Of a stretch of 64,000 bases of DNA, positions 19,153 to 53,454 are shown in pieces. Below the pieces are notes generated by a model. It ran no database searches, was not told the origin of the DNA, and saw nothing but the letters and a program-made list of their open reading frames with translations. A program made the position numbers and the translations under genes. Source of the stretch: an uncultured Chroococcidiopsis sp. (GTDB lineage: Bacteria > Cyanobacteriota > Cyanobacteriia > Cyanobacteriales > Chroococcidiopsidaceae); the NCBI GenBank assembly GCA_964248365.1, contig CAXTYC010000025.1, positions 11,640-75,639 on the forward strand, written 5' to 3'. Positions within the stretch are counted from its first letter, which is position 1; the number at the start of each line of letters is the position of its first letter.

Positions 19153-19400
19153 GTGGTAAAACTTAAAAAATTTATTTTTATGGGGGGCAGGCGAGCGCTC
19201 CAAAAAATGTAGTAATTGAGCTTTGTTGATAGAGTAAATTTATTTATTTTTAAAACAATTCATACTTGCTAAAAAAAGTGTATGCTACCTATCTATATAT
19301 TTTTTTAGATGCTATTTTATAGAAATGATATAGAGAAAATTTCTGAATAATGCACTGATATGGAACGCTCTTTAAAAATATTTTGGGTATCACCAAAAAA

Positions 19401-19473
19401 TATACGGAAAAATTCTAGATCATGTGCCAGATAGGATATATACGGGAAATTTCCGTATAATAGCGAGTTAGAT
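19401..19473 (+). other. attI-like recombination site
   Basis: GTATAAT, 5-bp spacer, then GTTAGAT (a GTTRRRY core at 19467-19473). It is preceded by direct repeats TATACGG(A/G)AAA at 19401 and 19439, the second part of the near-palindrome TATACGGGAAATTTCCGTATA. Confidence 0.55.
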
Positions 19474-19528
19474 GGTTAGCCGTAACTGTTTGGCTTCACG
19501 TTCCATGAGAGGCAGTGATGTGATTACT

Positions 19529-20587
19529 TCAGGCTTGCAAAAGAAAATCTCGAACAACTTCTGCAACAACTTGTGCTAGGTTGCAGGGGACAGCATTGCC
19601 TATTTGCCTGTAGATCGAGCTTTGTGTGCCGATAAACTGGTAATCATGTGGAAAGGTTTGTATTCTTAGTGCTTCGTCAACTGTCAATCGTCTAAGTCTT
19701 TTAGGTGCAGCTTCTATTGGTAGTGGTTTTCCCCCTTTCATCAAGTAAGAGTGATACCATTCAACCCAGCTATCTTGGTCAAAATAGCAATGGTCTTCAT
19801 CAATAATTGGTGTTTTATTCCCACCCATAGAAGCATGGAGAGCGCATGAGTATCCATCAGGATTTAATGGTCTTCCTTGACCATTGAACAACATTCCTGC
19901 ATAGGGAGATCGTCGCATTACAGGCTTTGCGGCGATAGTAACTTTTGCATTGCATATCCGCTGATTGTTCTGGGAACCTGCCACACCTAGAGGTGAAACG
20001 ATATCTCTAACTGTTGGAGCTTGCTTCTTATATCGCTCGAACTGTGCCTCTAAATCACTAATGTCTACAATATCCCGAAACCCAATCAGAAACATTCGTT
20101 CTCTGGATTGTGGTACGCCGAAATCAGATGAATTGAGTATCACTAACTTGTACGTATATCCCAATTGACTGGCAAAACGAAAAAGTTGTTGGCGAACCTC
20201 AGCCCACTTGTCAAGAACTGCTAGTGCCTTGACATTCTCACAGATAAAAACCCGAGGCTTTGTGAACTCCACAGCCTTCATGAATACCCATAACAATTTG
20301 CTACGCGGATCATCAGGGTTCATCTTGCCAGCCACAGAAAAACCCTGGCAGGGTGGACCACCAAAAACAAGATCGATCCCCTCGAATCGACGTATATCAA
20401 TCAACTTTTCACTTATGTCGCCGCACTTGATAATCCCTCCAGGGTGGTTTGCCTCATATGTGAGACAAGCATCTTTGTCAATGTCATTAGCACCAACAAC
20501 CTCGACTCCTGCGCGGATGAATCCAACATCCATACCTCCTGCGCCTGAGAAAAGTGAGAGTCCTGATAAAACCAGTTTGTTCTTCAT
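19529..20587 (-). CDS. DNA (cytosine-5) methyltransferase of a type II R-M system
   Basis: Motifs I (LFSGAGG), IV (GGPPCQGFS), VI (ENV), VIII (PQSRER), IX/X (RLTVDEA..IQTFP, QIGNAVP); probable start ATG 20587. Confidence 0.95.
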   Translation of the reverse strand: MKNKLVLSGLSLFSGAGGMDVGFIRAGVEVVGANDIDKDACLTYEANHPGGIIKCGDISEKLIDIRRFEGIDLVFGGPPCQGFSVAGKMNPDDPRSKLLWVFMKAVEFTKPRVFICENVKALAVLDKWAEVRQQLFRFASQLGYTYKLVILNSSDFGVPQSRERMFLIGFRDIVDISDLEAQFERYKKQAPTVRDIVSPLGVAGSQNNQRICNAKVTIAAKPVMRRSPYAGMLFNGQGRPLNPDGYSCALHASMGGNKTPIIDEDHCYFDQDSWVEWYHSYLMKGGKPLPIEAAPKRLRRLTVDEALRIQTFPHDYQFIGTQSSIYRQIGNAVPCNLAQVVAEVVRDFLLQA

Positions 20588-20588
20588 G

Positions 20589-20611
20589 TATGCGATTTTG
20601 GCATATTTGCC
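20589..20611. promoter_or_regulatory. Candidate controller-protein operator between the divergent M and C genes
   Basis: Inverted repeats TATGC-N7-GCATA and overlapping GGCA-N4-TGCC within a 47-bp intergenic gap. Confidence 0.4.
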
Positions 20612-20634
20612 TTTCCAAATCAATATCAAAAATT

Positions 20635-20895
20635 ATGGAAAGTCAAAAGCAATCTATCTCTAGTATTCATGATCCCGAATACCACAGGATCGTTGATGCG
20701 CTTATTTCCTTAAGAGAAAAAGCGAAACTCTCTCAGAAAGCAATTGCCCAGGAGATTGGCTTGACGCAACCTGACGTTTCCAAAATAGAACGTCGGGAAC
20801 GTCGAATCGACATCCTAGAAACATTACGATGGGTGCGGGCTACAGGTGCTGACCCTAGTGAGTTCTTCGCACAGTTTGCTAATTCAAAAAGTTGA
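20635..20895 (+). CDS. Xre/HTH_3 transcriptional regulator (putative R-M controller)
   Basis: LREKAKLSQKAIAQEIGLTQPDVSKIERRERRID HTH; ATG 20635; its stop overlaps the endonuclease ORF start. Confidence 0.85.
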   Translation: MESQKQSISSIHDPEYHRIVDALISLREKAKLSQKAIAQEIGLTQPDVSKIERRERRIDILETLRWVRATGADPSEFFAQFANSKS

Positions 20896-22040
20896 GCATG
20901 ACCCTTTCCAAACCAACCGTAGATCACACACTAGCCGAGCAACTTCTTTGGGAAGCAATAGAAATCGCACAAGATGACTCCAGACAAATTCCTGCGACAC
21001 AATGGGATGCCGAGATCAGAACAATCATTCAAGGAAAACATCTGACTTTCAGATACATTCTCGTGACTGCTCTTTTAGGAAAAGCAACTAACCCGAGCAT
21101 CAATGCCCTTGCTCTTCAAGCAGGTGCTGATCTTGAAGGAGCTTATGATGCCCGCAGCTTGTGTCATGGGATTGTTGTGCCGCTTGAGCGTCAATTGCTG
21201 AACCGTTCGCTGGGAGGTTCAAATGAGCCATTTCTCAATAAGCCCGCCCGCTTTCCAACGATATCCCCATCAAATGCTGTGAGGGCTGGTAGGGATAGAG
21301 AGCTTTTGCTTATACTGCACAAGGTGCTGTCCGAGATAGAAACGTCTGAGCAAGCTTTCAATAGTCTCTGTATTGCCGTGCATTATACCATTGAAAGACA
21401 AACTGCTCGAAATGGGCTTCTTCCTCAACTTTCAGAATCGGCAGACTCCCACTTAAAAATCATTGAATTTGTTGATGCATTTGTCACAAGATCGATTGAG
21501 GGTCAGGTTGCTGCAATCGTAGCAGGAACTATCCTATCCACATATTTTGACCAGTTTGAAGGCTTTGAGGTCATTGTCCATCCGGTTAATCAAAGTGGCG
21601 CTTCCTCCAATGAAGTGGCAGATATAGACATCAAGAAGAATGGTAAAATCTTTGTGGCAATTGAGGTTAAGGATAAACAGTTCAGTGAGCAGGATGTTGA
21701 TCATGCTGCTTTCAAAGCGAGTCAATATAGCTTAAAGTCAATCACGTTCGTCATTGGAGTAAGTGGAACGTGTATCGGTTCATCTCTTGAGCAGGTTGCA
21801 AAAACTGTTTTGCTCACGAGAAACGTTAATGTCATTTTTGTTGATATTGTCTCCTTTATTAGATCGGTAATTGCATTATGTCCAGAGCTTCCCTTTGCCA
21901 CATTTTTTGCAAAGCTCCAGTATTATGCAATCAGCGCTCGGGTCAAGGATGAAGTCTTTGAGCATATTGAACGTGTTTTCCAATCCATACAAGTTCCGTC
22001 CAACCCCCCATCTCACACTTCGCAGGAGCGGACGGAATAG
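20892..22040 (+). CDS. Type II restriction endonuclease, SacI-like family
   Basis: YILVTALLGKA, GAYDARSLCH and GGSNEPFLNKPAR motifs plus a PD-(D/E)xK-type core (ADID...EVKD); adjacent to an m5C methyltransferase. Confidence 0.8.
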   Translation: MSMTLSKPTVDHTLAEQLLWEAIEIAQDDSRQIPATQWDAEIRTIIQGKHLTFRYILVTALLGKATNPSINALALQAGADLEGAYDARSLCHGIVVPLERQLLNRSLGGSNEPFLNKPARFPTISPSNAVRAGRDRELLLILHKVLSEIETSEQAFNSLCIAVHYTIERQTARNGLLPQLSESADSHLKIIEFVDAFVTRSIEGQVAAIVAGTILSTYFDQFEGFEVIVHPVNQSGASSNEVADIDIKKNGKIFVAIEVKDKQFSEQDVDHAAFKASQYSLKSITFVIGVSGTCIGSSLEQVAKTVLLTRNVNVIFVDIVSFIRSVIALCPELPFATFFAKLQYYAISARVKDEVFEHIERVFQSIQVPSNPPSHTSQERTE

Positions 22041-22096
22041 AGATGGTTGGTGAGGATGCGGAGGTTACTTGCTGCGGCTTATCTCAACCGTTAGAC
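22010..22096 (+). other. attC-like site (integron cassette recombination site) with a mutated R'' box
   Basis: ATCTCAC (R'', expected ATCTAAC), 5 bp, GCAGGAGC(GGACGG) ... GCGGCTTATC, 6 bp, GTTAGAC (R'). CCATCTCAC matches the reverse complement of the left-end GTTAGATGG at 8 of 9 positions. Confidence 0.65.
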
Positions 22097-22156
22097 GAGC
22101 TTTCACAAATGGCAGAAAACCAGCGATTTTTATAGGTAGATGTGCTAGATAAAAAT

Positions 22157-53311: not shown

Positions 53312-53454
53312 TATCATCTCCGGTTGAATAACCGGAAAATATTTTATGTTTGTTAATGGTTAATAGTTAATGGTTGAATGCTGTTAACTATTAACCTTTG
53401 ACCATTAGCTATTAGCAAAAAACATTGTATTATTAAAATTAACCGGATTTAATA
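53312..53454. mobile_element. TA-bounded MITE with TIRs TATCATCTCCGGTT/AACCGGATTTAATA
   Basis: Imperfect terminal inverted repeats with internal heptamer repeats; abuts the end of the IS630 remnant. Confidence 0.55.

Follow-up and report, generated by a model that had tools for sequence, protein, structure and literature searches.

How a complete restriction-modification (R-M) system came to lie between two integron recombination cores, with no integrase beside it, is the question raised by a locus in contig CAXTYC010000025.1 of an uncultured Chroococcidiopsis sp. We analyzed a stretch of 64,000 nucleotides (nt) of this contig, referred to here as the window, together with its own assembly (G000; 5.6 Mb, 102 contigs, 99.97% complete). 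The module comprises three genes, i.e., a leftward methyltransferase (MTase) gene and, across one short intergenic region, rightward genes for a probable controller (C) protein and a restriction endonuclease (REase), and it is flanked by an AI-2E transporter gene and a sugar-kinase-family gene that converge on each other. Whether cassettes without an integrase are integron relics or off-target insertions is debated, and the question has been untestable partly because the attachment site attI is unknown for most integrons. Our data identify the window locus as a real cassette in a relic integron, a combination of components that are individually known. We consider it probable that a relic chromosomal integron holds a single R-M cassette at its attI, with the following history of exchange. 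The space between the AI-2E gene and the sugar-kinase gene would first have received an integron, whose integrase gene (intI) would then have been deleted, leaving an eroded 5' end at most, with attI retained; recombination of attC with attI, carried out by an integron integrase (IntI), would have inserted the R-M cassette, a circle of 2.6 kb, at G|TT; at least one exchange would probably have followed the loss of intI, through an IntI encoded elsewhere (in trans), beside which idea we mention the intI pseudogene on contig C10 of G000; and decay of attC since then may have left a fixed anti-phage and addiction module.

The R-M genes form an integron cassette with an eroded attC

The module is delimited by a GTTAGAT core starting at 19467 and a GTTAGAC core starting at 22090, and the gene cassette between their crossover points (19468..22090, plus strand; 2,623 bp) is packed edge to edge with its three genes. 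On the left, the MTase stop codon falls within the core in seven of eight homologs, and on the right the REase reading frame extends ~10 codons into the attC. An initial annotation of the window had placed the two cores and an 87-bp element (22010-22096) at these same coordinates, around three open reading frames (ORFs), all of which we confirmed. The 8/9 complementarity that it reported between the R'' segment of this element and the left end of the module is likewise real, the single mismatch being C22014.

The right end was assessed with a covariance model (R1) built from 17 attC sites of related genomes, each located near an intI gene, whether intact or broken, and all outside this cassette family. 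In these training sites the canonical bottom-strand structure covaried, with 89.6% of cells paired versus 26 to 45% in slid controls, and the covariation score was reached by 0 of 500 shuffles, a test that is inflated by the kinship of the sites. The check with an attC model that had been proposed for the window gave a clear match: R1 identified 22010..22096 (plus strand) as an eroded attC of a cyanobacterial ~87-bp family, the sites of which are ~70% alike, at 44 bits (E = 2.8e-11 over the 64-kb window). The next match in the window (53365-53438) scored 16 bits, is AT-rich with many broken pairs and is probably due to chance. Four R1 matches were found in the 5.6 Mb of G000, and a BLAST search of the window attC against its own genome returned only itself. 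A profile and the covariance model took the place of a heuristic attC scan that was too strict, with only a single site recovered from 24 loci. We also dropped an alternative R'' at 21998, since the model and the homologs put R'' at 22010.

Erosion of this attC was evident in several respects. C22014 alters the AAC triplet, where this column shows no variation among all 17 intI-linked attC sites; the R1 alignment contains many broken pairs, several of them in the L box; and folding of the bottom strand of 22010-22096, another of the proposed checks, failed to produce the hairpin of an attC (z values of -0.64 and +0.82). With R1, the attC sites of orthologous copies of this cassette scored up to 79 bits, and those at loci L034 (z = -1.66) and L035 (z = -2.78) folded canonically, such that a recombinogenic hairpin with intact AAC/GTT was present in L034 and L035 and absent from the window copy. 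Because its attC is eroded, the module is a cassette by descent that is probably immobilized by now.

Homologous modules define the same borders. A scan of genome contigs for relatives of the REase was carried forward with the best 80 of 156 stretches, among which the closest relatives were cyanobacterial (61 to 88% identity). BLAST matches of the homologous modules begin at 19465-19468; the left ends share the core in 13 of 17 loci, preceded by unrelated sequence and in nine instances by the G, and attC was detectable in 10 of 22 homologous 3' ends. The left neighbor was attI-like by profile in L034, L035 and L042, and was an attC in L051. A tblastn search found no IntI in the homologous cassette loci, many of which are short. 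The original claim of an integron cassette, brought in at G|TT by recombination of the IntI type, is supported, and, judged from these alignments, this R-M module is a cassette touring cyanobacteria.

Base composition contributed nothing to this conclusion. The initial annotation correctly reported that the highly iterated palindrome HIP1 is absent from the module (0 observed versus 2.6 expected), but the weight that it gave to this absence was not upheld, because 150 of 2,070 tiles of module size elsewhere in G000 are also HIP1-free. We therefore rejected the absence of HIP1 as a sign of foreign origin: such tiles are common, 1 to 4 HIP1 sites occur in 9 of 12 homologous cassettes, and the G+C content of the module (44%) equals that of its flanks, so that its composition gives no sign of an origin outside cyanobacteria, among which the cassette circulates. 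The closest relatives in a phage collection were only two records at 36% and those in a plasmid collection only three records at ~30%, none of them close. Rfam gave no match within the 64-kb window, and a promoter scan returned 3 sites versus 6.4 expected, i.e., chance level.

A sister genome carries a different cassette at the same site

The same locus is present in a genome of the same genus (G005), in which the AI-2E gene (86% identity), spacer (78%), attI (81%), right junction (85%) and kinase gene (86%) all correspond to those of the window. More specifically, the spacer lacks intI in both and is identical at 131 of 169 positions, and the right junction, i.e., what is left of the site ahead of the convergent sugar-kinase gene (22091..22156, plus strand), is identical at 56 of 66. 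Between the cores, G005 carries a 1,668-bp cassette encoding an HNH protein, with its own eroded attC (45.7 bits); no IntI match was obtained in G005 at E = 1e-30. The two genomes have the same left flank up to the G and the same right flank from the last core, and the swap thus falls at G|TT. The junctions predicted in the initial annotation were therefore correct, in that the G005 flanks meet the module borders at the G and at the last core. Comparison of relatives across the AI-2E-kinase interval, proposed there as a check, revealed another cassette (that of G005) but not the exact empty site. In the other five genomes of the genus, the AI-2E and kinase genes are not adjacent; in six genomes of two outgroup genera, an AI-2E gene and the kinase gene lie ~95 to 180 bp apart, with no att site at the three outgroup loci inspected.

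Contigs from four public runs provided additional hints, each from a single contig, at 88% likeness. In X1 (one contig), the locus again holds the R-M cassette, and the deletion of 195 bp (19292-19486) has removed the attI core, in line with domestication. The right junction recurs in X7, where it is joined to a different attC-like end. X6 and X7 have cassette contigs that match from inside the attI core, with another attI-like flank in X7. No junction skipping the cassette was found in the contigs of these runs.

As the sister genome has the loss of intI in common with the window but holds another cassette at the same G, exchange probably took place after that loss, and would have depended on an IntI supplied in trans. 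The strongest competing explanation dispenses with in-trans activity: a multi-cassette array would have been present when intI was lost, and the cassettes shed afterwards, through homologous or microhomology-based deletion from one att site to another, would have differed between the lineages, or else intI would have been lost independently. The ~70% likeness among attC sites would allow attC-attC deletion, both attC sites (window and G005) are eroded, and, in the accessible part of the report on Xanthomonas integrons with inactivated intI, arrays tend to freeze after inactivation (10.1101/2025.06.18.660453). However, whichever cassette was first, one lineage would need a loss running exactly from the attI G|TT to the attC G|TT, which have only ~5 bases in common; the intI-less spacer is common to both genomes; and in three further genomes (G169, G173 and G223), which have an orthologous attI without intI, the sequences likewise diverge immediately beyond G|TT. 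We regard such differential trimming as possible but rather unlikely. The Xanthomonas integrons resemble the present case in their lineage-wide erosion of intI that leaves cassette arrays behind, but, as far as that report is accessible, these arrays mostly freeze at one or two fixed loci (10.1101/2025.06.18.660453), unlike the scattered intI-less attI sites described here, at which orthologous copies differ in their first cassette.

The cassette lies at an attI, probably that of a decayed integron

The left end of the cassette adjoins an attI (19325..19473, plus strand) that consists of four imperfect-palindrome units with a ~36-bp period, followed by a core with the crossover after G19467. 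The core comprises an L box (19455-19461), a 5-bp spacer and an R box (19467-19473), labels given by analogy with attI1. Over 150 bp, the window is collinear with the first four attI units beside the intact intI of locus L261; the score of 98 was reached by 0 of 300 shuffles and 0 of 600 AT-rich genome windows. It is also collinear with the attI beside a broken intI in L132, L133, L136 and L142. Across 13 intI loci, the collinearity score was reached by 0 of 300 shuffles in seven and by 2 to 41 of 300 in the other six, and a repeat array ending in a GTT core was located upstream of intI in all 13 intI loci read. Tandem Repeats Finder did not detect the units, and, with regard to a Pc promoter for the array, a consensus scan found no sigma-70 site at the TATAAT contained in the L box.

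The window attI resembles attI1 of class 1 integrons in its L box, 5-bp spacer and G|TT R box, in its upstream accessory repeats and in its position at the 5' end of intI. In contrast to attI1, which consists of a core plus DR1 and DR2, it has four units, each an imperfect palindrome at a ~36-bp period, and the longest intI-linked arrays have ~seven; the units may be accessory IntI-binding repeats. These comparisons indicate that the left end is the attI of a decayed integron and no secondary (attG) site, and they overturn the initial proposal of a stand-alone, bare chromosomal target, the target being collinear with attI arrays beside intI genes.

The claim that no intact intI lies near the module held, and it extends to the entire assembly: no IntI exceeded the cut-off in G000, and the only traces are the N-terminal pseudogene on C10 and a second relic on C9. 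At the window locus itself, the attI array begins where the intI start codon sits in intact loci, and a heavily eroded intI 5' end may persist immediately upstream (19243..19322, minus strand), a suggestive assignment. The alignment score of this segment with the intI stubs beside related attI sites was reached by 1 of 500 shuffles for L117 and for one of the two L118 copies, and the L117 stub alignment is in register with the attI match.

Several relic platforms were observed among these loci and elsewhere in G000. L118 (8988-10326) contains two tandem platforms of intI stub plus attI, ~1.1 kb apart, each followed by an attC match. L122 (6264-7476) and L123 (6484-9403) are relic integrons orthologous to each other; both have an intI stub of ~100 bp, and their contents differ, the attI core being deleted in L122. 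A second relic integron of G000 (C10, 65227-68000; L001, L002 and L166) combines the intI pseudogene, which covers the N-terminal ~130 codons and contains stops, with an attI-like site and an array in which one attC (65.7 bits) is intact. A third (C9, 92900-93100) retains a few intI start codons and an attI array, with an ORF of higher G+C content behind G|TT. On C20 (10534-10621; L167), a lone attC (47 bits) lies behind an ORF for a 155-aa membrane protein and a small gene pair that resembles a toxin-antitoxin module by eye; no attI was seen there.

Since intI does not adjoin attI at the window locus, the locus differs from a complete integron; with one attC and no intI in the window, it is a SALIN by the IntegronFinder definition. 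It thus resembles the attC-site clusters without integron-integrases (CALINs) and the single attC sites lacking integron-integrases (SALINs) described in the accessible parts of PMC4889954 and 10.1101/2022.09.11.507474, which consist of attC-bearing cassettes without an adjoining intI. Both sources list, among the origins of such elements, loss of intI and service by an integrase encoded elsewhere; according to the accessible text of PMC4889954, attI sites outside classes 1 to 3 are beyond the search of these tools. As far as these sources go, the present locus differs in that its attI is identifiable and its orthologous site shows cassette exchange. Because attI can be identified here, the origin would be loss of intI rather than insertion at attG, and a recognizable cyanobacterial attI renders the question of relic versus off-target insertion testable.

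Insertion at a noncanonical attG or secondary site, i.e., a SALIN generated by off-target IntI activity, is the alternative closest to the earlier reading. It would fit the single attC, the lack of a nearby intI and the ordinary host genes on both sides; homologous cassettes at L036, L044 and L116 reside at sites whose left flank is not att-like; and, in the accessible part of 10.1101/2022.09.11.507474, IntI1 inserts cassettes at attG sites and SALINs are common. Nevertheless, the left flank here consists of an attI array of 150 bp that runs collinear with the array of an intact integron; this flank is absent from the three outgroup loci inspected and holds a different cassette in G005, and this alternative is largely refuted at the window locus and very improbable.

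Other observations weigh against a relic integron with an exchange history. The exact empty site was absent from all genomes and contigs searched; the swap at this locus is seen in a single assembled sister genome; the outgroup AI-2E gene is only ~68% identical and has paralogs; and an ancestral two-cassette array that was trimmed differently in each lineage fits as well. As both attC sites are eroded, the exchange is old. With respect to attI and intI, the window site is the best match of a profile of 12 diverse attI sites at an E value of only 0.038 and is missed by this profile in a genome-wide search; a profile of intact intI 5' ends detected no remnant in the window; and for three other intI stubs the score of 19243-19322 was reached by 17, 61 and 71 of 500 shuffles, leaving two of five comparisons at 1/500. 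Three homologs lack the G at the left junction, 12 of 22 homologous 3' ends have no detectable attC, the MTase gene has a 3' frameshift, and avoidance of GAGCTC is common to ~20 palindromes in G000 (see below).

The cassette encodes a predicted type II R-M system

The leftward gene (19529..20587, minus strand) encodes a C5 cytosine MTase of 352 aa (PF00145, E = 8.7e-70; TIGR00675; PADLOC MTase_II). A 1-nt insertion near 19539-19540 has put an ancestral tail of ~23 residues, after motif X, out of frame, and the X1 contig is identical to the window at this spot; the frameshifted MTase likely keeps its function. The REase (20898..22040, plus strand; 380 aa) belongs to the SacI/EcoT38I family (PF09566, RE_SacI; E = 8.5e-109). 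It matches EcoT38I in sequence (E = 8.5e-63), with an identity of only 36%, and in predicted fold (7edb; TM-scores of 0.79/0.85), for which an alignment-based model was used and a single-sequence model discarded (predicted local distance difference test score, 37.6). Its motif D242/D244..E256-x-K258 is intact, and the four residues, which we take to be catalytic, as in PD-(D/E)xK enzymes, are invariant in 17 of 17 aligned homologs. Synonymous differences exceed nonsynonymous ones in all three genes relative to five homologs. Thus, a separate REase with its catalytic motif and a cognate C5 MTase are both present, as predicted for a type II R-M system of the SacI/EcoT38I family.

Between them lies a gene for an XRE-type helix-turn-helix (HTH) protein of 86 aa (20635..20895, plus strand; HTH_3; PADLOC Control_protein, E = 1.3e-7), a probable C protein, the small gene being directly upstream of the REase gene with 2 bp separating the two. 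Its PDB matches are 3f6w, 2ef8 and 3eus, of which 2ef8, probably C.EcoT38I, is annotated as a putative transcription factor. A candidate operator, a 5-bp inverted repeat with a 7-bp spacer (20589..20605), abuts the start codon of the MTase gene. All 13 aligned cassettes have it without a change, whereas the adjoining noncoding bases vary. The controller probably binds this conserved repeat and would thereby delay the nuclease until the DNA is methylated. According to the accessible part of PMC2632904, C-protein systems delay REase expression, and C.EcoT38I is named there among the C proteins. A cassette that arrives in hosts with unmethylated DNA is well served by regulating itself in this way.

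The target of the system is probably GAGCTC or GRGCYC, the specificities of SacI and EcoT38I, respectively. In G000, GAGCTC and GAGCCC occur at observed/expected ratios of 0.03 and 0.05. We dropped site avoidance as a guide to specificity, since these two sites and ~20 others are alike depleted; likewise, as ~20 palindromes are equally avoided, depletion of GAGCTC is no proof of R-M activity. In G000, ~20 palindromic hexamers occur at less than 0.2 of the expected frequency, and at least five loci besides the module encode C5 MTases, which indicates that the lineage is rich in R-M systems.

R-M systems are the main barrier to transforming cyanobacteria, and our data show that a full controller-regulated system can travel as one cassette, a suggested route by which cyanobacteria may gather and fix many of them. 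R-M systems in integron cassettes, e.g., XbaI, are already known (PMC10661359), and type II systems are prevalent in sedentary integrons (10.1101/2024.07.02.601686). As far as these two sources are accessible, the window cassette is like those cases in being a type II system in one attC cassette, in its defense cargo and in belonging with cassettes that have their own promoters; unlike them, it has three genes including a controller, is divergent, measures 2.6 kb, and has outer genes that end inside the att sites. The accessible part of a review speaks of one or two ORFs per cassette (PMC8618304), and no three-gene controlled R-M cassette was found in a literature search whose coverage falls short of most subscription papers. 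EcoT38I itself, in the material accessible to us, travels on a P2 prophage, unlike the present integron cassette.

attI sites without intI at other loci

We searched 301 genomes of the phylum with a 24-base attI-core pattern that was designed from the window and its relatives and that may be biased toward this attI subtype, the kin not being independent. It matched 48 places in 34 genomes, versus 4 control matches. When 46 of the 47 other sites were examined 1.2 to 3 kb upstream, 1 had an intact intI, 11 had a broken gene or stub, and 34 had none; IntI exceeded the cut-off in only 3 of 33 of these genomes. The intI-less sites are scattered, and one genome may have as many as four. Among 40 loci read over a wider range, there were 23 attC matches, all on the strand expected from attI and 21 of them downstream. 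A downstream attC match was found at only 9 of 30 intI-free sites; either R1 misses divergent attC sites, or the remaining sites are dead. Besides the genomes noted above, the metagenome loci L204 and L205 form an orthologous pair of sites without intI whose sequences differ directly behind G|TT. L250, L252 and L260, which show a bare core only, beside a host gene, were dropped as evidence of swapping.

That the repeat array is instead a promoter or regulator-binding region, with incidental cassette-like borders and an R-M island that moved otherwise, would agree with the TATAAT in the array (the L box doubling as a -10 hexamer), with the lack of an evident cassette at L250, L252 and L260 and with the 21 of 30 intI-free sites without an R1-detectable downstream attC, but it is very improbable, given the array and GTT core upstream of intI in 13/13 loci, the strand of all 23 attC matches and the agreement of the module borders to the base in many genomes.

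In addition to the relic integron at the window locus, we tentatively put forward a broader proposal, about which we remain doubtful: most integron platforms in cyanobacteria and at least one unrelated high-G+C lineage may be orphan attI sites, scattered and in use, that receive new cassettes in trans through an IntI that is rare or only passing by; defense cassettes that are large and self-regulated, such as the present R-M system, would tour these sites across cyanobacterial lineages and then be locked by attC/attI decay, and many SALINs and CALINs of unknown origin could be attI-headed and still active. Orphan docking sites may thus go on swapping cargo. CALINs and SALINs, loss of intI and use in trans have been described or proposed, as far as the sources are accessible (PMC4889954, 10.1101/2022.09.11.507474, 10.1101/2025.06.18.660453, PMC8618304). 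A literature search, with most subscription papers outside its coverage, returned none on cyanobacterial attI arrays or orphan attI sites.

Downstream of the attI in L242-L244, a ~79-bp dispersed and tandem repeat, not recognized as attC by R1, lies behind the first ORFs, with four tandem copies in L242. A pattern scan of metagenomes yielded nine loci, none orthologous to the window locus and none with an R1 match; L203 was discounted, as it is inside coding sequence and looks like chance. The other eight (L200-L202 and L204-L208) are on high-G+C contigs with nearly the same attI core and upstream repeat units behind ordinary host genes, which suggests orphan attI platforms outside cyanobacteria. 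No intI was present in the available DNA of these eight; two have a consensus sigma-70 promoter before the repeats, and L205 and L208 continue into repeat-spaced ORF arrays.

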